Shown here: piece by piece, positions 16,169 to 23,878 of the stretch | Layout of the letters: each line of letters begins with the position of its first letter | Position numbering within the stretch: the first letter of the stretch is position 1 | Assembly (NCBI RefSeq): GCF_002237535.1 | Contig: NZ_CP022530.1 | Coordinates: 1,887,248-1,919,247, forward strand | DNA: 32,000 nucleotides | From: Bacterioplanes sanyensis | GTDB lineage: Bacteria > Pseudomonadota > Gammaproteobacteria > Pseudomonadales > Oceanobacteraceae | Direction: 5' to 3' | Translations under genes and position numbers: made by a program | The notes under the pieces: model-generated | Told to the model about the DNA's origin: nothing | Databases searched by the model: none | The model's input: only the letters and a program-made list of their open reading frames with translations

Positions 16169-16217
16169 CAGCATTCGCGCAGCGCTCTGTTCAGCTAGCG
16201 AATGCTGTATCTTTATT
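16169..16217 (+). terminator. Putative terminator between convergent genes
   Basis: 10-bp stem CAGCATTCGC (16169-16178) / GCGAATGCTG (16198-16207) followed by TATCTTTATT. A second GC hairpin, GTGCCGGG-GTAAA-CCCGGCAC, lies at 16146-16166 without a U-tract. Confidence 0.5.
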
Positions 16218-17241
16218 GCGCGTCGCAGTGCATGCCACCACCAAATTCCAGTGCGCCCTGGGCGAAATGAGCTTGCTGCTTGAGCTGGCCAAATTTGTAC
16301 AGCTCCACTTGAATGTCGGCGTTCATGGTTTTGGCAGATGGGTACTCTGCATTAAAGACGTCTATCGATGGCAAGGTCGAATCCTCAAAATCGGCCGTGT
16401 CCGCAGCGGCGTGAATGCGCATTTCCTTGTCAAAGCTCTTTAGTTGAATATCGAGTTTGCCTTCGCAGGGTGACAAGGTTCTGGTGACGGTCAGGCCGGC
16501 AATAGATGGCAAAAACGTCATTTTGTGCTCAGTGGAATGAAACTGACCGGCCCACATCTCGATGGCAAATCCTTCATCTGAACCACCAGCCAACATCAGT
16601 TGTTGATCAGCTTCAGTGGCCATGACGAAGGCGTAGTTGGTGGCTTGACTGGTGCTCCAACCTTTATCGATATAAGTAGAGGCGGTGCCTTGATGCTGCG
16701 CATAGTCGGCACTAAACGTGTAACGTGCCGGGGTGGCCAGGCTAAAAACAAACCAGCGATTGGCGACATTGGGCAAAGACGTTAATAAACTGTAGGGGCT
16801 GGCGCCTTTATTCAATCGCCAGTAGTGCTGATGCGGCCCGACTAAATCGGATGAAAAGGAGAAGTCTTCGGTGTTGATACGAATAGAGGACTCATCCATT
16901 TCGGCAACCCCTGGGATGCTGAAACGAAAACCGTAGGTACTGTCTTTTGCTTCGACCTGAACATCGTCGTACAGGTAATCGTAAGTGCGGATCTCGCCCT
17001 GGATTGGTGTGTACACCAAGTGCAAATAACCACGCTCTTTCAGTTCGGGGTCGTTCGCATAAATGAACGTTTGCAGGCTGATTTTAAAATAGCCCACCTG
17101 AGGGTCATTAAAATAATAGAACCACTGCTCATTCCAAGGCTTTCCGCTAGGAGTGTGTGGTTTTAAATCCGCCAGTGTGGTGGCCATAGAAGGCATGCTG
17201 ATAAGCACTAAAATGACGATGGTGTGTATCCGGTTTGCCAT
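16213..17241 (-). CDS. Secreted protein, possibly tocopherol-cyclase-like fold (function unknown)
   Basis: 342 aa with signal peptide MANRIHTIVILVLISMPSMATT. Three motifs parallel cyanobacterial or plant tocopherol cyclase as I remember it. PHTPSGKPWNEQWFYYF resembles PHSGYHW...FFEGWYV. YIDKGWSTSQATNYAFV resembles AEKNWG.SFP..WFW. C-terminal GALEFGGG resembles AGLEVGG. The CDS is solid; the family assignment is tentative. Confidence 0.5.
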   Translation of the reverse strand: MANRIHTIVILVLISMPSMATTLADLKPHTPSGKPWNEQWFYYFNDPQVGYFKISLQTFIYANDPELKERGYLHLVYTPIQGEIRTYDYLYDDVQVEAKDSTYGFRFSIPGVAEMDESSIRINTEDFSFSSDLVGPHQHYWRLNKGASPYSLLTSLPNVANRWFVFSLATPARYTFSADYAQHQGTASTYIDKGWSTSQATNYAFVMATEADQQLMLAGGSDEGFAIEMWAGQFHSTEHKMTFLPSIAGLTVTRTLSPCEGKLDIQLKSFDKEMRIHAAADTADFEDSTLPSIDVFNAEYPSAKTMNADIQVELYKFGQLKQQAHFAQGALEFGGGMHCDAQ

Positions 17242-17446
17242 GGTGATGTCCTTGTTATTCAGGTTTCAATGCTTGGGTGATAGTTAATTGCGGCCAATAG
17301 GTAAGTTTGTTAAAGAGAAACCTTAATGTTGATATGAACGAGTATCGTGGGCGATAGATCACAATGGGTCTGTCGCAGCTATCGGCGACATTCGTTGTAC
17401 GTTTAAACTTTGATGTTTTCGTTGCTGGCATTCTTTTTGATATGAA

Positions 17447-17468
17447 AAGGGCCGATAAATCGGCCCTT
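17447..17468 (-). terminator. GC-rich hairpin just downstream of the FAD-oxidase stop (possible terminator or processing site)
   Basis: AAGGGCCGA-TAAA-TCGGCCCTT, a perfect 9-bp stem, lies 14 nt from the stop at 17482. On the minus strand it lacks a clean U-tract, so terminator function is uncertain. Confidence 0.4.
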
Positions 17469-17481
17469 AATCTGATTAAAG

Positions 17482-19089
17482 TTATTTACACACCCTGGCT
17501 TGCTCGAAGAAGCCTCCAGCTTGGCAGGTGGTTCCTTCTTCGCAGTGGCTGTCTTCAGTGCAGTAACACTCACCACGTAAGTTACACCCTGGAGTCAGGT
17601 AGTTGCTCAGCGGGTCGTCGCCGGTAGCACGCTGCCAGAATGGATTGGTGAACACATTGTATGGGTCCACCTCCTGTTTGAAGGCTAAAAAGTCGTTCCA
17701 TTTAGGGAAACGTGATGGCATGTCTTCGAAGATGGCCACGGAGTTTTTACCCCAATGTGGACGCGCACCATACTTGCGCAGCGACATTTGTTCGATTTCG
17801 AGGTTAACAAAGTAGTTCTTTGGTACCGCAGCCCCTTCTTGACGCAAGGTGTATTCAATGCCGACAAAGGCGCTGTCACGTCCTGCACTCATGCCCAGAT
17901 AGCTGTCGGACGCTTTACCAAAGCGGAAATAAATGCCGTTCAGTGGGAAACAGGTGCGTGGGTTGTTGTCCAATATTTTACGTACGTCGGCAATCCAGTT
18001 GGGTAGCTGCTCGAATGGAATGGCCACTTCTTGCAGTGCGATGGGAAGCTTATCCCACACGCACTTATCTGGATCTTTGCACTGGAAATACTGCATACGA
18101 TCGGAATAGCCAACTGGCTTGTAGCTTTTAAAGCCAGTATCTAAATTACGGAAGTACGAGCCGTCGCGTGCTCCATAGCGCACTGCGGCGGCGAAACACT
18201 GCAAGCTCGAATTTTTGGTTTCATGTAAGGCGTCAAACAGTAAACCAAAGAAATATTCCTGAATATCCGACACATCAGCCTGAGCGTTATAGTCATTGCC
18301 TTTGGTGCTGAGTGGTACTTCGTTGTACAGCGTGGTGGTATAGCGGCCTAAACCCGGGAACCAAGCAACATTGGCAGAATAGTTATTGCGCGCCAAGTCG
18401 AGAATAACATCTTCTAAGTTGCTGTCATTACGATAGCCTTTGACTTCGGCTTTCACTTTGAATGCTGGTTCCAGCTGTACCGTGGCTTCGACCACAACCC
18501 CAAGCACGCCGAGATTGACACGCGCAGCATTCAAATCTTCGCCGGTCAGCACACGCACATCACCCATGCCATCGACAATTTTCATCGAGGTGATGTAGTC
18601 AGCAATCATATTGCTTTTTTTCTGGAAGGTTGAGCCATGGGTGCCGCTGCCCAGCATGCCGCCGATGGTAAAGGTTCCCAGTTCCGTCACCATGTTGACG
18701 GCCAGACCTTTGTCACGCAAAAAGTCGTTGAACTGATTAAAGCGCATGCCGGCTTCAACGGTAATGGTCATCGCTTCTGGGTCAAAGTCGACGACGTCGG
18801 TCATGTTTTCAAGGGTAACTTGTACTTGGCCATCTTGAGTACAGGCGGCGTCAATCTGGCTGGCAAACTTACGATTGCCGGTCATGATGGTATTGCCATT
18901 GACCAGAGCGTCACGCACGATGTCCTGAATTTCTTCAATGCTGGTGGGGCTGTGAATGATGCTGGGTGAACATTCATAGGTGCCCTGATAGTTTTTTAAT
19001 TTTTCATTTTCGTCCGAATACAGGCTGTAGGACGTTGTGAGTACTGCGCCAGCCGCAATCAGCGGTAGCCAGAGTTTTTTGAGTGTCAT
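17482..19089 (-). CDS. Exported FAD-linked oxidase, PCMH-type FAD-binding domain plus ALO (D-arabinono-1,4-lactone / L-gulonolactone oxidase-like) domain, with Cys-rich C-terminal tail
   Basis: Signal/anchor MTLKKLWLPLIAAGAVLTTS. FAD_binding_4-like motifs are present (P.S.EEIQ.IV, GGMLGSGTHGS, NLGVLGVV), along with the ALO hallmark ARPHWGK. The start is set to ATG 19089, which has a perfect AAAGGAGA SD 6 nt upstream. The track start at 19116 adds 9 non-signal residues. Confidence 0.85.
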   Translation of the reverse strand: MTLKKLWLPLIAAGAVLTTSYSLYSDENEKLKNYQGTYECSPSIIHSPTSIEEIQDIVRDALVNGNTIMTGNRKFASQIDAACTQDGQVQVTLENMTDVVDFDPEAMTITVEAGMRFNQFNDFLRDKGLAVNMVTELGTFTIGGMLGSGTHGSTFQKKSNMIADYITSMKIVDGMGDVRVLTGEDLNAARVNLGVLGVVVEATVQLEPAFKVKAEVKGYRNDSNLEDVILDLARNNYSANVAWFPGLGRYTTTLYNEVPLSTKGNDYNAQADVSDIQEYFFGLLFDALHETKNSSLQCFAAAVRYGARDGSYFRNLDTGFKSYKPVGYSDRMQYFQCKDPDKCVWDKLPIALQEVAIPFEQLPNWIADVRKILDNNPRTCFPLNGIYFRFGKASDSYLGMSAGRDSAFVGIEYTLRQEGAAVPKNYFVNLEIEQMSLRKYGARPHWGKNSVAIFEDMPSRFPKWNDFLAFKQEVDPYNVFTNPFWQRATGDDPLSNYLTPGCNLRGECYCTEDSHCEEGTTCQAGGFFEQARVCK

Positions 19090-19112
19090 TTGGCGTCTCC
19101 TTTCGACGATAA

Positions 19113-20957
19113 TCATCCAAATTGTGGAAGTAAGTGGCTATCAATCAGGTCGCGAACTTTGCGGCTGTGTAAGGGTTGTTTTTGCCGCAGAAAATCACCG
19201 TAATTGGCTTTGTAGATGCCGCTGGGCCGAGGCCCAATAGAGCCAACCCACAAGGCATGGTTGGTGGTTGCAAACTGCAGTTGCTGATGAGCGAGTTTGC
19301 ACAACGGGCCTGACGCCAAGTCTTTGGCATCAAAAAACCAGTACTCTTTGCCGTTTGAATCTGTACTGGAGGGGTGCTTGCGCACAACGGCAGTAAATAA
19401 ATAGCCATCGTCTTGCGCCGTCGAACCTTGTCGTGCCATAAACTGTGGTGTTCTGACCACACAATCTTCAGGGAAGGTATAGCTGTCGGTGATTCGCATT
19501 TGCTGGCAATCCATGTGCACAATGGACGATGGAATCGGTTGCTTGGGCAGGGACTCATTGTCATAAAGGCGGCCTGGGTAATCTTCGTAGGCACGCGCTA
19601 CGCGGCGGGGCAAATGCTCTGGTCGGTAGCCGATGGCCGACCAATAAATATGCTCAAACTTTTCCGGGAACTGAAAATGGCCGCGGTAGGCAGGGTCATT
19701 CATATCCCACAATAACCGCTCATCGCGAATTACGTGGAAGTCTTGTTTAATTTCCTCGGCGTGGCTATCACTCACCCAAATACGAGCTCTGACCAGACCG
19801 CCGACATCGACGGGTGCGACAGGGTAGCCAGACAACTCTCGTTCGACTCGACCACCAAAGTACAGGCGTTCCCAGTTAAACAGTTGCTCGGATTTATCCA
19901 TAGCGCCGAGATATTGGCCATATAGGGTAATTTCACCATGACTGTCGTCGAAGTCGCACATGATGTCGGAGGTGTCGAAGTCAAGTTCAATATAATCCGC
20001 AATGACATGTGGCTGCGCCGACAGCAAGTCACGTTTGCGAATGATCCACACCGGCGTTTTGTGCTGTTGCGGCGTAACAATGGTGGTTCCCAATATGCGT
20101 GTGGCTTCCACGCGTGCCGCGGTTTGGAAAATAAGAATATGATTGCGGGTCACGCCAAGGGAGTGAGACGTGGTTTCTAGCCAAGCGTTATTGCCCAGAC
20201 GGTCGACAATATTCCAACGCTGTAACTGACCATTAAGGTCCCAATAAATCAGGTGCAAAAATGCGTCTTTTCGGCCCATGGTGCCGACGTTGCCACCATA
20301 ATTGATGGTAAAGCACTCTTGGCGTTCGAGGTCAAAAAACGGATGACCTGTGGTGCGTACCTGAGGAAATAGATGTTTTTTGGGGGTTAAAGCATCTATG
20401 AAAGGCGGTAAGCTGGACTTCCATTCATCCGGCATGCCGATGGGGGTAACCAGATCCAGTGTGGTGGCATCAAACTCAAATGGCGTGCCGCCTTCGTAGC
20501 TGAAAGCAAAGCGGTTGTTGCCCATGTAATTGGGAGCGGTATTGCAGTAGTTCATATAGCCCAGCGTCAGGCTTTGGTAGATGGTGCCGCCCATCAGGTT
20601 AAATTTGTCTAATCCATGCGTGATGTGCGACTGCAAAATTGCTGAAGGGGTATCAATCATTTTGCGGGTGAAATCGATCTTGCCGCTGCCAATGTCTAGT
20701 CGGGTGACGGCGCCCCGTCCGTTGGGGCTGAGATGATTAGTTTCTAGTGGTATGCCTTCGGCGATAAACACATGGCCGTACATATCCTGCGGGATGTTGC
20801 CCTCTAATAAGTCCAGCGTGCCGCTGCTGGCTTGCAAGCTGCCGTGCATAATTGAGCGTGGAAAACTGGACTCCACTAACTCAGAGTGTGCCAATGCCGT
20901 TGATGGCAGCAGTGGCGTGGCGGCGGCTACTTTCAAAAAATCACGTCGTTTCATCAT
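19113..20957 (-). CDS. Tat-exported carotenoid oxygenase family (RPE65/CCD/lignostilbene dioxygenase-like) protein
   Basis: Twin-arginine signal MMKRRDFLKVAAATPLLPSTALA. Family blocks are LEGNIPQDMYGHVFI, NTAPNYMGNRFAFSYEGGTPFEFDATTLDLVTPIG and TTGHPFFD. TSHSLGVTRNHILIF sits in place of the HDF block, followed by QDDGYLFTAVV...FFDAKDL..GP and TTNHALW. It lies 23 nt upstream of the FAD oxidase on the same strand. Confidence 0.8.
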   Translation of the reverse strand: MMKRRDFLKVAAATPLLPSTALAHSELVESSFPRSIMHGSLQASSGTLDLLEGNIPQDMYGHVFIAEGIPLETNHLSPNGRGAVTRLDIGSGKIDFTRKMIDTPSAILQSHITHGLDKFNLMGGTIYQSLTLGYMNYCNTAPNYMGNNRFAFSYEGGTPFEFDATTLDLVTPIGMPDEWKSSLPPFIDALTPKKHLFPQVRTTGHPFFDLERQECFTINYGGNVGTMGRKDAFLHLIYWDLNGQLQRWNIVDRLGNNAWLETTSHSLGVTRNHILIFQTAARVEATRILGTTIVTPQQHKTPVWIIRKRDLLSAQPHVIADYIELDFDTSDIMCDFDDSHGEITLYGQYLGAMDKSEQLFNWERLYFGGRVERELSGYPVAPVDVGGLVRARIWVSDSHAEEIKQDFHVIRDERLLWDMNDPAYRGHFQFPEKFEHIYWSAIGYRPEHLPRRVARAYEDYPGRLYDNESLPKQPIPSSIVHMDCQQMRITDSYTFPEDCVVRTPQFMARQGSTAQDDGYLFTAVVRKHPSSTDSNGKEYWFFDAKDLASGPLCKLAHQQLQFATTNHALWVGSIGPRPSGIYKANYGDFLRQKQPLHSRKVRDLIDSHLLPQFG

Positions 20958-21579
20958 CAGCTCCGGATGGGCAGGGCCAGATCTCCAGTACGGCTGGAGA
21001 AAGGGCCTATGACTACCATGATGAAAAAACGGTACATACGTACCTTTACAGAAAACTAGAAATTATTCGTATTAAGAAATTTGCCAGAGTGAGAATTGCA
21101 CCAAGAATTGATTATTTAATTGCTGATGTTAGTTCTTAAGTATCAGTGCGCTGTGCTGCTTGATTTAATGATATGTTCGGGTTTTGCATTACTATTTCTG
21201 CAATCGGAAGTCGGCTTGCTGTCAATGAGCGAAGCTGGTGGCTCACCAGCACTCAACGCGGTATATCCATCGATATAAACGGTGCTTTTATCAACGCTCA
21301 TTTATTGAGGAAAATATTTTTATAGTTGTGGGGCTGGATCCACGGTCGGTACTAAGAGAGACCAAGAAAAAACCAAGAATGAGATCAAAACAAGCACCAA
21401 AACAAAGATCAACACAGAGATCACACATCCTCAAGTTGTTCTTTGAGCTGCCTATTACACATGGTCTCACTCAGCGAGCCTGTGCTCCTCACCTTGCTCT
21501 TGCAATGGCACCGGAGCGTGACCCGCCGGTTGATTCAGGCTCTAATAACCGGGTTATTGCAGAAATAAAGGAGACGTCC

Positions 21580-22098
21580 ATGCCGTCACAATCTGCGTTG
21601 TTTGATCGGTTAACGCAGGACTTGCCCACCGGGCAAGTGACTTGGCTCGGTGTTCGGCCTGCTCGACGACAGCCGATGACCACGGTGCCCGAAGCCTATG
21701 CCATTGCTGATCTTGGTTTGGAAGGGGATCGGCGCTGTCAGGGCAGTCCAGGTAGCGCTCGCCAGATTACTTTCATTAATGCCGAGCATCTCGACTTAGT
21801 AGCTAGCTGGTTGCAAACAGCGGATATCGACCCAGCGCTATTACGTCGCAATGTGGTGATCAGTGGTGTCAACTTGCTGGCGTTGCGTCACCAGCAATTT
21901 ACCGTGGGTGATGCGGTGTTTGAGGCAACGGCGCTGTGTCATCCGTGTTCGCGTATGGACGAAGCCTTAGGCCCGGGCGGTCAGGCAGCCATGTTGGGGC
22001 ACGGCGGTCTTTGTGCACGTATTCTCAAGTCTGGAATGGTGCGGGTTGGTGACTCGTTGCGCTGCTTGATGCCAGAGGAGCGCTGGCCGTCGGCTTGA
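21580..22098 (+). CDS. MOSC domain-containing protein
   Basis: 172 aa from ATG 21580, with a strong SD AAGGAGA 5 nt upstream. GLEGDR, RQITFIN.EHL, RRNVVISG and the conserved Cys in LCHPCSRMDE are typical of MOSC. The track's 114-aa N-terminal extension from GTG 21238 is low-complexity and not protein-like. Confidence 0.85.
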   Translation: MPSQSALFDRLTQDLPTGQVTWLGVRPARRQPMTTVPEAYAIADLGLEGDRRCQGSPGSARQITFINAEHLDLVASWLQTADIDPALLRRNVVISGVNLLALRHQQFTVGDAVFEATALCHPCSRMDEALGPGGQAAMLGHGGLCARILKSGMVRVGDSLRCLMPEERWPSA

Positions 22099-22368
22099 GT
22101 CGTGTGTGGGGGAATGCTACAGTCGCGCCAAGTAATACGTTTATCAATCCAATAATTGGACTGCCATACATCGTCCGTCTGTTTCAGGTACGTTGTCGTG
22201 CAGTGGTTATGTTTATGTCATCTGTAGTGAATCTGTTGGTTGTGGTTGGCGTTCAGCCGCCCGCAGCGGTTGTGGCTTAAGCCACGGTTTTCTTGCTGCT
22301 CTCCGTTTGGAGTTGTTACTGCCTTTGGTGAGCAGCGCTTTCGCTCGTTCCAACAGATGAGATTTGAC

Positions 22369-23316
22369 ATGAATACTCTTTTTTCCCGGGCGCCTTGGGT
22401 GCCCATGGCATTGTTTGTTTTGCTCTGGGGCAGTGCCGCCATTTTTACCCGTATCGGGTTAGATCACGCGACGCCATTGGCGATGTTACTGCTGCGCTTC
22501 AGCTTGGCACTGCTGGTGCTGCTATTCCTGTGCCTGTCACAGTCGTCCGGCCCGCGGCGTTGGTGGCCGGCCGCCAAACATCGCAAGCGCGTTGCTGCGG
22601 CGGGGCTGTTGATGATTGGCCTGTATTCCATCAGTTATTTTCAAGCCATGTATCACCAAGTGACGCCAGGCTTGCTGGCGACGGTGCTGGGTGTGCAACC
22701 GATACTGACCTTGCTGCTCACTGAGCGGCGCTTTTCGCCTTGGCGATTGCTGGGACTGTTGCTGGCACTGGCGGGGCTGGCGTTGGTGGTGTGGCAAAGT
22801 CTGGTGGCCGCGCAATTGTCGATGGTCGGCATGGCCTACGCGCTGGCGGCATTGCTGTGCATTACTCTGGGAGCTTTGTTGCAAAAAGGCGTTAACGAAG
22901 CACCGCTGCAGACATTGCCCATGCAATATGTGATCACGCTGCTGGTGTGCTTGTTGTGGGCGCCGACGCAGGCGTTTGAATGGCAAATGGATTGGGGCTT
23001 TTGGATACCCTTGCTGTGGCTTGGAATTGTCATTTCTGTACTGGCCCAGCTGCTGTTTTATCGGCTCATTCAAACGGGTAACTTGGTCAATGTGACCAGC
23101 CTGTTTTATTTGGTGCCGGTGGTGACCGTGGTGTTGGATTTCTTGGTGTTGGGCAATCGTCTGCCCTGGCTGGCGTTGGTGGGCATGGCGGCCATACTGA
23201 CCGGGCTGGCGTTGGCGTTTCGCCAACATGCTGTGAGCGACACCGCTGCAGCGCCAGCAGCTACATCAACGCCAACTTCAACGGCAACATCCACGCCGCG
23301 AGAGTCTAACGCTTAA
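22369..23316 (+). CDS. EamA/DMT-family transporter
   Basis: About ten hydrophobic helices, and a LLWGSAAIFTRIGL start typical of EamA repeats. It has a Thr/Ala/Pro-rich C-terminal tail (AAAPAATSTPTSTATSTP). The start is ATG 22369 or ATG 22357; the track start at 22240 is rejected. Confidence 0.8.
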   Translation: MNTLFSRAPWVPMALFVLLWGSAAIFTRIGLDHATPLAMLLLRFSLALLVLLFLCLSQSSGPRRWWPAAKHRKRVAAAGLLMIGLYSISYFQAMYHQVTPGLLATVLGVQPILTLLLTERRFSPWRLLGLLLALAGLALVVWQSLVAAQLSMVGMAYALAALLCITLGALLQKGVNEAPLQTLPMQYVITLLVCLLWAPTQAFEWQMDWGFWIPLLWLGIVISVLAQLLFYRLIQTGNLVNVTSLFYLVPVVTVVLDFLVLGNRLPWLALVGMAAILTGLALAFRQHAVSDTAAAPAATSTPTSTATSTPRESNA

Positions 23317-23878
23317 TCGGTGCAGACATAATATCGGTCGGTCGATCGATGTCGGTCAAAATACCGGCATCGTCGGTCGGCAGATAGTGCACCGCATATT
23401 GCTGCATTAAATGGCGCGCGCCTTGATCGCCGTGGCACTGCAGCAGCGCTTTCGCATGACGTTGGCTAAACCCCACCGGGTGGCCCCGTTGGTGCTGATA
23501 CATGGGTACCACAATGTTATGTTGCTGCAGTTGTTGTGCGACATGAAGGTAAGTACTGGCGTGGATGTAGGGCATATCTGCCAGCGCAATTAACCATCCC
23601 GACGCCTGGCGGCACGCCTGAACACCAAAAGCCAGACTATGACCCATGCCTAGGTGGGCGTCTGGGCACATGTCCCAGTGTATTTGCTGTGCTGTCAGTT
23701 GTGCGCCAATGGCCTCATCGCCATCGGCAAGCACTACAAAACAGGACAAGCCAGATTGGCGAATTGTAGCCACTGTGCGTTGCAATACGGAGCTGCCGCA
23801 AGGCAGCCTCGCTAGGCGCTTGTCGCCGCCAAAGCGGCGGCTGCTGCCAGCGGCTAACAGGAGAACGGTGGTGTTCAT
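23306..23878 (-). CDS. mocA: MobA-like NTP-transferase, probable molybdenum cofactor cytidylyltransferase (MocA-like)
   Basis: LLLAAGSSRRFGGDKRL..., ADMP, RGHPVGF and DIDRPTDI parallel E. coli MocA (AAGLSSRMG..K, GDMP, PGHPIL, DIDTPDD). It is the last gene of the XdhC/Mo-enzyme operon. Its 3' end overlaps the convergent EamA gene by 11 nt. Confidence 0.7.
   Translation of the reverse strand: MNTTVLLLAAGSSRRFGGDKRLARLPCGSSVLQRTVATIRQSGLSCFVVLADGDEAIGAQLTAQQIHWDMCPDAHLGMGHSLAFGVQACRQASGWLIALADMPYIHASTYLHVAQQLQQHNIVVPMYQHQRGHPVGFSQRHAKALLQCHGDQGARHLMQQYAVHYLPTDDAGILTDIDRPTDIMSAPIKR

Follow-up and report, generated by a model that had tools for sequence, protein, structure and literature searches.

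A predicted 3-His/1-Asp subfamily in the carotenoid cleavage dioxygenase fold, encoded beside a GULLO-like flavoenzyme in marine bacteria

Three neighboring genes for exported proteins on the chromosome of Bacterioplanes sanyensis raise the question of which chemistry they encode and whether their products act together. The genes, all on the minus strand, lie in a stretch of 32,000 nucleotides (contig NZ_CP022530.1, positions 1,887,248 to 1,919,247), here called the window, and their products are referred to as P1, P2, and P3, from upstream to downstream. An initial annotation of the window had described them as a carotenoid-oxygenase-family dioxygenase, an ALO-type flavin adenine dinucleotide (FAD) oxidase, and a tocopherol-cyclase-like protein. 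Our main new finding is that P1 is predicted to belong to a natural subfamily of the carotenoid cleavage dioxygenases (CCDs) with a metal site of three histidines and one aspartate (3-His/1-Asp), obligately paired with a GULLO-like flavoenzyme, P2; the replacement of a histidine by an aspartate in the metal site is a point absent from the first reading. The 4-His iron site is treated as an invariant signature of the whole carotenoid/retinoid/stilbene oxygenase family, and a natural, conserved 3-His/1-Asp subfamily, if true, would test how the first coordination shell controls the choice of metal and the O2 chemistry in the CCD fold.

P1 is a very divergent CCD/RPE65 homologue. The Pfam profile RPE65 (PF03055) matches residues 48 to 571 over profile positions 12 to 468 of 469 (E 4e-23; 82.7 bits against a gathering score of 27), which bears out the CCD/RPE65/LSD assignment made at first, and the alignment of the P1 family with canonical CCDs by hhalign reaches a probability of 99.7% (E 1e-25). 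Furthermore, the AlphaFold2 (AF2) model of P1 (pLDDT 87.4; pTM 0.88) finds its best Foldseek matches in ACO, LSD, CAO1, NOV1, RPE65, and NinaB (E ~1e-20 to 1e-17), with 11 to 16% identity and target-normalised template modelling (TM) scores of 0.61 to 0.73, which correspond to the seven-bladed propeller. These structural matches favor none of the carotenoid, stilbene, and retinoid branches. The phmmer search of the Protein Data Bank (PDB) with P1 found no relative, and a profile built from 24 P1-family sequences reached the Synechocystis ACO only at 8.6e-5.

The metal ligands were located by comparison with a canonical reference of six CCDs from plasmids, all of which carry the WEGG Glu and four His (E179, H211, H258, H324, and H511 in the numbering of the Ralstonia CCD at locus L051). 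In the hhalign alignment of 46 P1-family sequences with this set, these five residues pair with E155, H205, H265, D331, and H567 of P1, respectively, and the Asn of the canonical HxxN motif pairs with C334. Since the local confidence of this alignment around the third histidine (His3) was low, evolutionary intermediates were brought in. An exhaustive profile search of 1.84 billion cluster representatives returned only 549 relatives of P1 at E<=1e-3, and 127 full-length representatives of this wider clade were aligned with P1 by MAFFT. Column 331 is His in 123 of these 127 sequences, with Asp confined to the P1 family and a few isolated sequences, and columns 205, 265, and 567 are His in 131 to 134 of the 134 sequences. 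The wider 4-His clade aligns in turn with the canonical CCDs at an hhalign probability of 100% (E 3.8e-53), and here H324 of L051 pairs with H342 of the clade member P0095, which occupies the same column as D331 of P1. The three-way MAFFT alignment of family, clade, and canonical CCDs displaced the canonical His3 by one column; the two profile-profile alignments are in mutual agreement.

According to these alignments, the canonical iron ligand His3 is predicted to be replaced by an invariant aspartate, Asp331, in the P1 subfamily. Asp331 is found in all 46 family members, as are His205, His265, and His567, and in the AF2 model it falls within a confidently predicted beta-strand (residues 329 to 334). 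Asp331 and the neighboring Cys334 are specific to the subfamily and invariant or nearly so. Two of the three second-shell Glu could be mapped: the equivalent of ACO E150 is retained as the WEGG-type E155, and ACO E426 aligns with an invariant threonine, T503. Because all four ligand positions are invariant among the family members, with Glu155 invariant as well, the pattern argues for a working metal site. Five other invariant histidines of P1 were considered as substitutes for His3 and are improbable ones: in the wider clade, the columns of H299, H427, H436, H481, and H597 carry residues other than His, and none of the five belongs to the His3 strand.

The four His iron ligands have been called "absolutely conserved" in the CCD family, and Mn, which prefers oxygen/His sites, could not be loaded into the 4-His site (PMC6060882). 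The predicted 3-His/1-Asp site is a real departure from the family as judged by these alignments, and it could alter the metal preference or the redox tuning. Moreover, none of the four nearest outgroup neighborhoods (P0095, P0096, P0102, and P0098) contains an ALO-type or AttH-fold gene; P0095, P0096, and P0102 are four-His proteins, and P0098 is an independent Asp variant beside a polyketide synthase. Thus, among the neighborhoods compared, the His-to-Asp change of the P1 subfamily coincides with the ALO partner gene.

The Asp variant P0098 deserves a separate description. It is a protein of 542 amino acids, 32% identical to P1, with Asp at the His3 column, and the neighbors of its gene (L060, metagenome contig SRR5712690_440, 5757-7385) encode a FeeM-like acyltransferase and a large polyketide synthase. 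No ALO gene is present there, and P0098 may represent an independent His-to-Asp change in a biosynthetic setting.

As for the export of P1, its N terminus (MMKRRDFLKVAAATPLLPSTALA, followed by H) fits the twin-arginine translocation (Tat) pattern, in which S/T-R-R-x-F-L-K precedes a hydrophobic segment that ends in A-x-A. Both arginines, R4 and R5, are invariant in the homologues (family consensus RRxFLK), in agreement with the twin-arginine signal recognized earlier, and the Pfam TAT_signal profile gives a weak match below its cut-off (E 0.005). The cleavage sites of P1, P2, and P3 were all placed by the -3/-1 rule. Tat export is not limited to the P1 family, since the canonical Ralstonia CCD at L051 starts with MERRSFLTAAGLG and many relatives of the wider clade carry RRxFLK.

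Some observations on other CCDs were made along the way. The L051 gene (1603-3165, Ralstonia solanacearum megaplasmid CP052087.1) encodes a canonical 4-His CCD with the Tat-like start MERRSFLTAAGLGLAAP, so that exported canonical CCDs exist in plant pathogens; the genes before it are those for a DUF2141 protein and a phytanoyl-CoA dioxygenase, and 118 Ralstonia plasmid records were matched. The metagenomic proteins P0094, P0099, and P0126 (1431 to 1540 amino acids) contain four to five separate stretches matching the P1 profile, and Pfam shows three RPE65 stretches in P0094; they look like CCD-like domains fused in tandem. Among plasmids, the nearest relative of the Synechocystis ACO is found on pTs417 of Candidatus Thiodictyon syntrophicum (L050:1705-3169; 53% identity over the fragment), and its annotation as a pair of short coding sequences of the "carotenoid oxygenase family" suggests a fragmented or pseudogenised CCD.

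The conservation of the three genes was assessed with the P1-family profile in one genome per species (185,579 species), followed by tblastn and clustering of the open reading frames (ORFs) at the loci. The scan returned 45 species-level loci, which belong to marine Gammaproteobacteria with the exception of Oligoflexus (~50% identity). They are found in Bacterioplanes, Hahella, Zooshikella, Pleionea, Algicola, Bermanella, Saccharospirillaceae, Shewanella, Thalassomonas, Microbulbifer, Endozoicomonas, and many Vibrio, including V. coralliilyticus, V. chagasii, V. ostreicida, and V. pectenicida. P1 is present in all 45 loci, and P2 is adjacent in 44 of them, immediately downstream and on the same strand (divergent in Oligoflexus). 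P3 follows immediately after P2 in 31 loci, with an inverted orientation in L010 and L013, and the next most frequent family, present in 12 loci, reflects Vibrio-lineage synteny. The median gaps are 68 nucleotides between P1 and P2 and 92 nucleotides between P2 and P3. The intact trio also occurs in Hahella, Pleionea, a metagenome contig, and Shewanella sp. VB17. A P2 match is missing from one locus at a contig end and from L047, where P1 is cut by an ISL3 transposase. Given the counts of 44 and 31, P1 and P2 form the obligate core of the cassette, and P3 is a frequent accessory, dispensable or unlinked.

The trio therefore recurs in many genomes with unrelated flanks, as the idea of a functional cassette had required of the three families. 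Across the 45 loci, the cassette has no constant companion among regulators, transporters, or catabolic genes, and ORF clustering shows no fourth family in more than 12 of them, in line with the earlier remark that no regulator or transporter is linked to the trio. The patchy distribution, together with flanks that differ between genera, indicates that the cassette has moved over evolutionary time. The literature searched (on Tat or periplasmic CCDs, on CCDs together with AttH or, in Vibrio, with gulonolactone oxidase, and on CCDs of the host genera) yielded no published description of the cassette, and the earlier statement that no characterised bacterial system has this trio still holds there.

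Two loci show particular arrangements. At L047 (10001-12912, Vibrionales bacterium SWAT-3), the P1 homologue ends at about residues 553 to 558 and an ISL3-family transposase comes directly after it, with neither P2 nor P3; this cassette has apparently been inactivated by the insertion sequence. In one Microbulbifer genome (L057:5064-8059, Microbulbifer sp., CP174343.1), P3 is present yet unlinked: it adjoins, in divergent orientation, an aldehyde dehydrogenase gene, a 3-hydroxyisobutyrate-dehydrogenase-like gene, a short-chain dehydrogenase/reductase gene, and a LysR regulator gene, a neighborhood that could hint at carbonyl metabolism downstream of the cassette.

P2 matches the Pfam profiles FAD_binding_4 (PF01565; E 1e-20), ALO (PF04030; E 1.6e-23), and GULLO2-like_3rd (E 5e-11). 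Its best NCBIfam match is TIGR01677 (pln_FAD_oxido), at full length and E 7e-70 but below the cut-off, and P2 stays under the cut-off of every aldonolactone-oxidase NCBIfam model (TIGR01677, 236 versus 383 bits; TIGR01678, 155 versus 397; TIGR01679, 145 versus 292; GLDH TIGR01676, 59 versus 458). The closest relatives in the PDB are GLDH, xylitol oxidase, and DprE1. The C-terminal HWGK motif, R443-P-H-W-G-K448, is invariant in the P2 family.

The His for the covalent 8-alpha-FAD linkage is present in GULO, ALO, and AldO and absent in GLDH. In the alignment of P2 with GLDH, P2 has no His at the corresponding position (TGNRKFAS versus VGSG-LS in GLDH). The FAD of GLDH is non-covalent (PMC11066809). 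Furthermore, the invariant Thr135 of P2 aligns with the GLDH gatekeeper Ala113, which was located by comparing entry 8qmy with the A113G entry 8qnc. In the work of Leferink et al. from 2009, the gatekeeper is reportedly Gly or Pro in oxidases and Ala, Ser, or Thr in dehydrogenases. This one aligned residue weakly suggests that P2 is a dehydrogenase rather than an oxidase. Thus, in the earlier label of an ALO-type FAD oxidase, the FAD_binding_4/ALO family stands on the strength of the PF01565 and PF04030 profile matches, and the oxidase activity may give way to that of a dehydrogenase.

All 45 aligned P2 proteins begin with a short basic n-region and a hydrophobic core of ~15 residues, usually closed by an A-x-A-like end, as expected from the Sec-type signal initially proposed. 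The conserved Cys, 12 in P2 and 2 in P3, would fit disulfides formed outside the cytoplasm. The P2 N termini of Microbulbifer (L016, L017, L022, L024, and L033) contain RCRLLRRATNLLCAAGLF with a twin arginine, unlike those of the other lineages, which have a K-x-K Sec-type n-region; the LLRRATNLL stretch of Microbulbifer might be Tat-like, and the export route may differ in that genus.

The label of a tocopherol cyclase for P3 had to be abandoned. P3 has no match in Pfam (E<=1), Tocopherol_cycl (PF14249) included, or in NCBIfam; 12 diverse members of the P3 family gave none in Pfam even at E<=10; none of 45 database homologues carries a precomputed Pfam domain; and the P3-family profile found nothing in the PDB. 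The AF2 model of P3 (pLDDT 82.5; pTM 0.81) has as its top Foldseek match the AttH protein NE1406 (2ICH; E 2e-11; probability 1.00; TM ~0.5), and the next 25 matches all have the AttH-like fold, with no other fold below 1e-3. The fungal decalin pericyclases Phm7, CghA, and Fsa2 are relatives by fold as well, as are kievitone hydratase and 25-phosphosteroid lyase, and the UniRef name of P3 is "AttH domain-containing." As modelled, P3 is a member of a Pfam-orphan family with a predicted AttH-like double-barrel fold.

The AttH-like fold holds cofactor-independent hydratases of isoprenoid C=C bonds (CrtC, kievitone hydratase, and hydroxy-GDGT synthase), a steroid lyase, and decalin-forming pericyclases. 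In particular, the characterised enzymes of the AttH family convert isoprenoid double bonds to tertiary alcohols by hydration (bioRxiv 10.1101/2025.10.20.683597; PMC4717167). It is reasonable, on the modelled fold, to suggest that P3 acts on a prenyl or polyene substrate; of the initial idea of a trio acting on isoprenoids, a prenyl- or polyene-acting P3 survives by way of the AttH fold, and the tocopherol cyclase family does not. The P3 homologues share a hydrophobic N terminus with a conserved A-T-T junction at its end, which upholds the Sec-type signal assigned earlier, followed by the invariant mature motif L-x-D-x-x-P-H. Also invariant are H137..Y140-W141 and D192-K193-x-W195.

The features of the cassette in the window are collected in Table 1; the coordinates, strands, N termini, 23-nucleotide P1-P2 gap, and Shine-Dalgarno sequence given in the initial annotation were all correct.

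Table 1. Genes, signal peptides, spacer elements, and predicted metal-site codons of the cassette in the B. sanyensis window
Feature	Position in the window	Strand	Description
P1	19113..20957	-	614 amino acids; divergent CCD/RPE65 superfamily protein, seven-bladed propeller
P2	17482..19089	-	535 amino acids; FAD_binding_4, ALO, and Cys-rich GULLO2-like C-terminal domain; plant GULLO-like architecture
P3	16213..17241	-	342 amino acids; exported; Pfam-orphan family, AttH-like double beta-barrel fold
P1 Tat signal peptide MMKRRDFLKVAAATPLLPSTALA	20889..20957	-	Predicted cleavage after A-L-A; RR codons 20943-20948
P1-P2 spacer, 23 nucleotides, with Shine-Dalgarno sequence AAAGGAGA	19090..19112	-	Direct sequence reading
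P2 Sec-type signal peptide MTLKKLWLPLIAAGAVLTTSYS	19024..19089	-	Basic n-region and hydrophobic core kept in 45 aligned homologues
Intrinsic-terminator-like hairpin AAGGGCCGA-UUUA-UCGGCCCUU then UU	17445..17468	-	Immediately 3' of the P2 stop
P3 Sec-type signal peptide MANRIHTIVILVLISMPSMA	17182..17241	-	Followed by the conserved mature N terminus TTLxDxxPH
P1 Asp331 codon GAC (canonical His3 position)	19965..19967	-	hhalign and wider-clade column
P1 His205 codon (His1; TTGHPFFD)	20343..20345	-	Alignment to canonical CCDs
P1 His265 codon (His2; SHSLGVTRNH)	20163..20165	-	Alignment to canonical CCDs
P1 His567 codon (His4; TNHALW)	19257..19259	-	Alignment to canonical CCDs

P3 is 100% identical to the product of locus tag CHH28_09035. 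The start of P2 could be fixed because the lengths of the homologues (534 to 537 amino acids), the N-terminal alignment, in which 45 homologues start at the MTLKK position, and the Shine-Dalgarno sequence GAAAGGAGA, 7 nucleotides upstream of the MTLKK ATG, all fit position 19089, as the initial annotation had it. The same evidence rules out a longer P2 starting at 19116, where an ATGA would overlap the P1 stop. The 240-nucleotide spacer between P2 and P3 had been noted for a hairpin, and this proved to be a strong one: a GC-rich stem of 9 base pairs, followed by a U-run, with a folding energy (dG) of -16.5 kcal/mol (z -4.97), as stable as which none of 200 shuffled sequences folded. With such a hairpin directly after the P2 stop, P1 and P2 look like one transcription unit in B. 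sanyensis, and P3 may therefore have its own promoter, 240 nucleotides downstream of P2.

The nucleotide composition had been taken as a sign of plausible horizontal acquisition, but the contrast reported (43 to 50% GC against 58 to 67%) was overstated when GC is computed per gene. The trio genes have 49.7 to 51.2% (49.8% overall), the acyl-CoA ligase gene 52.9%, the xdhC gene 61.0%, and the whole window 53.0%; a porin gene (48.6%) and an aerolysin-like gene (49.8%) are also low, within a range of 48.6 to 61.0% for the genes outside the trio. The trio thus lies only ~3 points under the window mean and within the spread of its neighbors, so that composition is weak evidence and recent transfer was set aside on this ground.

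The neighbors in the window encode an acyl-CoA synthetase, a ketopantoate reductase, a GGDEF protein, a MOSC protein, an EamA transporter, a MobA-like protein, XdhC, and a molybdo-hydroxylase subunit; none of them is kept beside the cassette in other genera, and they are unrelated to it. Upstream of P1, a Fur box was sought in 44 loci, and the best matches, with 5 to 9 mismatches in 19 positions within AT-rich DNA, are at the background level. The GTG-start ORF at 21238-22098 on the plus strand (286 amino acids) has its MOSC domain only at residues 172 to 274; its true start is probably well downstream, which would extend the noncoding region upstream of P1 beyond 280 nucleotides. Elsewhere in the window, the AT skew is strongly negative (down to -0.32) and the GC skew positive in the region 21500-23500, over the gene of the EamA-family transporter, an antisense ORF of 230 amino acids at 22537-23229 looks spurious, and an ORF of 423 amino acids near the right end (30343-31614, minus strand; Aerolysin Pfam E 2e-120) marks a pore-forming toxin gene.

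The results described above show to which families and folds the three proteins are assigned, that they carry export signals, that the cassette is conserved, and that a His of P1 has given way to Asp; from these we infer a reaction order, a substrate class, a metal, and an electron acceptor. The reading we prefer, to which we give a little less than an even chance, places the cleavage and oxidation of an exogenous lipophilic alkene in the periplasm, by way of a 3-His/1-Asp metal center. P1 would be folded and loaded with metal in the cytoplasm, and then exported by Tat; its center of His205, His265, Asp331, and His567 would cleave oxidatively a C=C bond of the alkene, which probably comes from algae or animal hosts and is of the isoprenoid, polyene, or styrene type. 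P2, exported through Sec and kept stable by disulfides, would act as a GULLO/GLDH-like FAD enzyme that oxidises a hydroxyl or lactol of the substrate or of the cleavage product; it would probably work as a dehydrogenase, with a periplasmic acceptor and not O2 receiving the electrons. P3 would hydrate, dehydrate, or rearrange an isoprenoid-type double bond, or carry a hydrophobic ligand.

Several points weigh against this proposal. With no transporter, regulator, or downstream catabolic gene conserved beside the cassette at the 45 loci, the uptake of a substrate and the use of a product are not evident. Since P3 is missing or unlinked in 14 of the 45 loci and the terminator parts it from P1-P2 in the B. 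sanyensis window, P3 may stand outside the P1-P2 pathway. The acquisition of FAD in the periplasm by a P2 exported through Sec is left without an explanation, and the gatekeeper argument for P2 depends on a single aligned residue. Finally, the usual substrates of the ALO family are polyols and sugar-like lactones rather than lipids.

The constant company of P1 and P2 would also be accounted for if they were a two-component redox pair, in which P2 makes an ascorbate-like reductant or gives electrons directly and thereby keeps the P1 metal reduced in the oxidising periplasm. We consider this unlikely, even though P2 stands beside the Asp331 subfamily in 44 of the 45 loci and is absent from the outgroup neighborhoods (three 4-His and one Asp variant), a comparison that comprises only four neighborhoods. 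The closest characterised relatives of P2 make ascorbate or erythroascorbate, and both Fe(II) and ascorbate are routine additions in CCD assays. A link between plant GULLO2 and the handling of iron is reported in work cited in PMC11066809. However, P2 scores below all the aldonolactone-oxidase NCBIfam cut-offs, there is no evidence of aldonolactone synthesis or import in the host bacteria, and neither a Fur box nor another iron-related motif is found upstream of P1.

A second alternative, which overlaps our preferred model and has in our judgment a similarly small chance of being right, concerns P1 itself: the His-to-Asp change could have turned it into an isomerase or hydrolase, an oxygenase with another metal (e.g., Mn), or a noncatalytic lipid binder, and the cassette would modify or sense a lipid without cleaving it. 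RPE65, in the same superfamily, is an isomerohydrolase. The absolute conservation of the four His elsewhere and the preference of Mn, not loadable into the 4-His site, for oxygen/His ligands (PMC6060882) would agree with such a shift, as would the subfamily-specific Asp331 and Cys334, invariant or nearly so, the Thr503 at the position of the second-shell ACO E426, and the identity of P1 to any solved CCD of only 11 to 16%. On the other side, the invariance of three His, Asp, and Glu155 is what a functioning metal site typically shows, the model of the propeller fold is a highly confident one, and Tat export suits a protein that carries a cofactor.

That the three genes are merely syntenic neighbors, co-inherited and each acting on a different substrate, is quite improbable, for although P3 has its own spacer and comes after a terminator in the B. 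sanyensis window, is unlinked in Microbulbifer, and evolves much faster (31 to 48% identity versus 60 to 67% for P1 and 68 to 75% for P2 in the same species), P1 and P2 remain adjacent in Vibrionaceae, Hahellaceae, Microbulbiferaceae, Shewanellaceae, Endozoicomonadaceae, Oceanospirillales, and even Oligoflexus, between flanks that are entirely different, and the presence of P3 beside the pair in 31 loci, including the inverted L010 and L013, points to selection for closeness.

Returning to the periplasmic cleavage route, it is possible to go one step further and hypothesize, as a speculation that we would sooner doubt than accept, that the Asp331 subfamily is a new mechanistic class in the CCD fold: a Tat-exported 3-His/1-carboxylate oxygenase, possibly with Mn or a retuned Fe, whose obligate partner is a GULLO-like flavin dehydrogenase and which would let iron-limited marine bacteria cleave lipophilic alkenes of host or algal origin outside the cytoplasm. 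The cassette represents a compact, uncharacterised, and apparently periplasmic pathway. Its hosts are associated with corals, shellfish, and algae (Vibrio coralliilyticus, V. ostreicida, V. pectenicida, Endozoicomonas, Thalassomonas, Microbulbifer, and Hahella), so that it could bear on the processing of host or algal pigments and lipids by such bacteria, and several of the hosts are genetically tractable. Furthermore, the P2 family provides bacterial counterparts, with the same three-domain architecture, of the enigmatic plant GULLO-like proteins, and P3 defines a Pfam-orphan family with a predicted AttH fold.

Compared with known systems, P1 shares with the canonical CCDs (Synechocystis ACO, NOV1/LsdA, CAO1, RPE65, and NinaB) the propeller, the RPE65 match, the positions His1, His2, and His4, and the WEGG-type Glu. 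Different from them, it is predicted to have Asp331 for His3, Cys334 for the Asn of HxxN, and Thr for the Glu of ACO E426; it is ~120 residues longer, only 11 to 16% identical, undetectable by phmmer in the PDB, and always paired with the gene of an ALO-type flavoenzyme. The closest relatives of P1, at 27 to 34% identity, form the wider clade of proteins of 600 to 790 amino acids, mostly with a Tat signal, from Myxococcota, Pseudanabaena cyanobacteria, and metagenomes. They resemble P1 in length and architecture, many have RRxFLK signals, and they are likewise uncharacterised, but all four His are present in 123 of 127, Asp occupies the position of P1 Glu155, and the neighborhoods of P0095, P0096, and P0102 lack an ALO or AttH-fold gene.

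P2 has in common with GLDH, GULO, ALO, the plant GULLO-like proteins of TIGR01677, alditol oxidase, and DprE1 the FAD_binding_4 and ALO domains and the C-terminal HWGK motif. With the plant GULLOs it shares, in addition, a third, Cys-rich GULLO2-like domain and an N-terminal secretion signal, and with GLDH the lack of the covalent-FAD His and, judging from one aligned residue, a gatekeeper other than Gly or Pro. Unlike the aldonolactone oxidoreductases, P2 falls below every NCBIfam cut-off, is bacterial and predicted to be periplasmic, and is encoded by a gene coupled to a CCD-like gene.

P3 resembles the AttH-fold enzymes (2ICH, CrtC, kievitone hydratase, hydroxy-GDGT synthase, 25-phosphosteroid lyase, and CghA/Phm7/Fsa2) in the two-barrel fold (E 2e-11 to 1e-5; TM ~0.45 to 0.58). 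Its H137..Y140-W141 and D192-K193-x-W195 recall, by motif alone, the catalytic H-x-W and Y-x-D of CrtC, whose catalytic residues are H239/W241/Y266/D268 (PMC4717167). It differs from these enzymes in having no sequence match in Pfam, NCBIfam, or the PDB, 6 to 14% identity in structural alignments, a signal peptide, and two invariant Cys. As to the whole cassette, an analogy is offered by the secreted rubber/polyisoprene oxygenase systems (Lcp or RoxA with OxiAB), which belong to unrelated families (haem proteins and a molybdo-enzyme) and in which an oxygenase exported by Tat or Sec cleaves a lipophilic C=C bond by oxidation outside the cytoplasm and an exported oxidoreductase then takes the carbonyl products.

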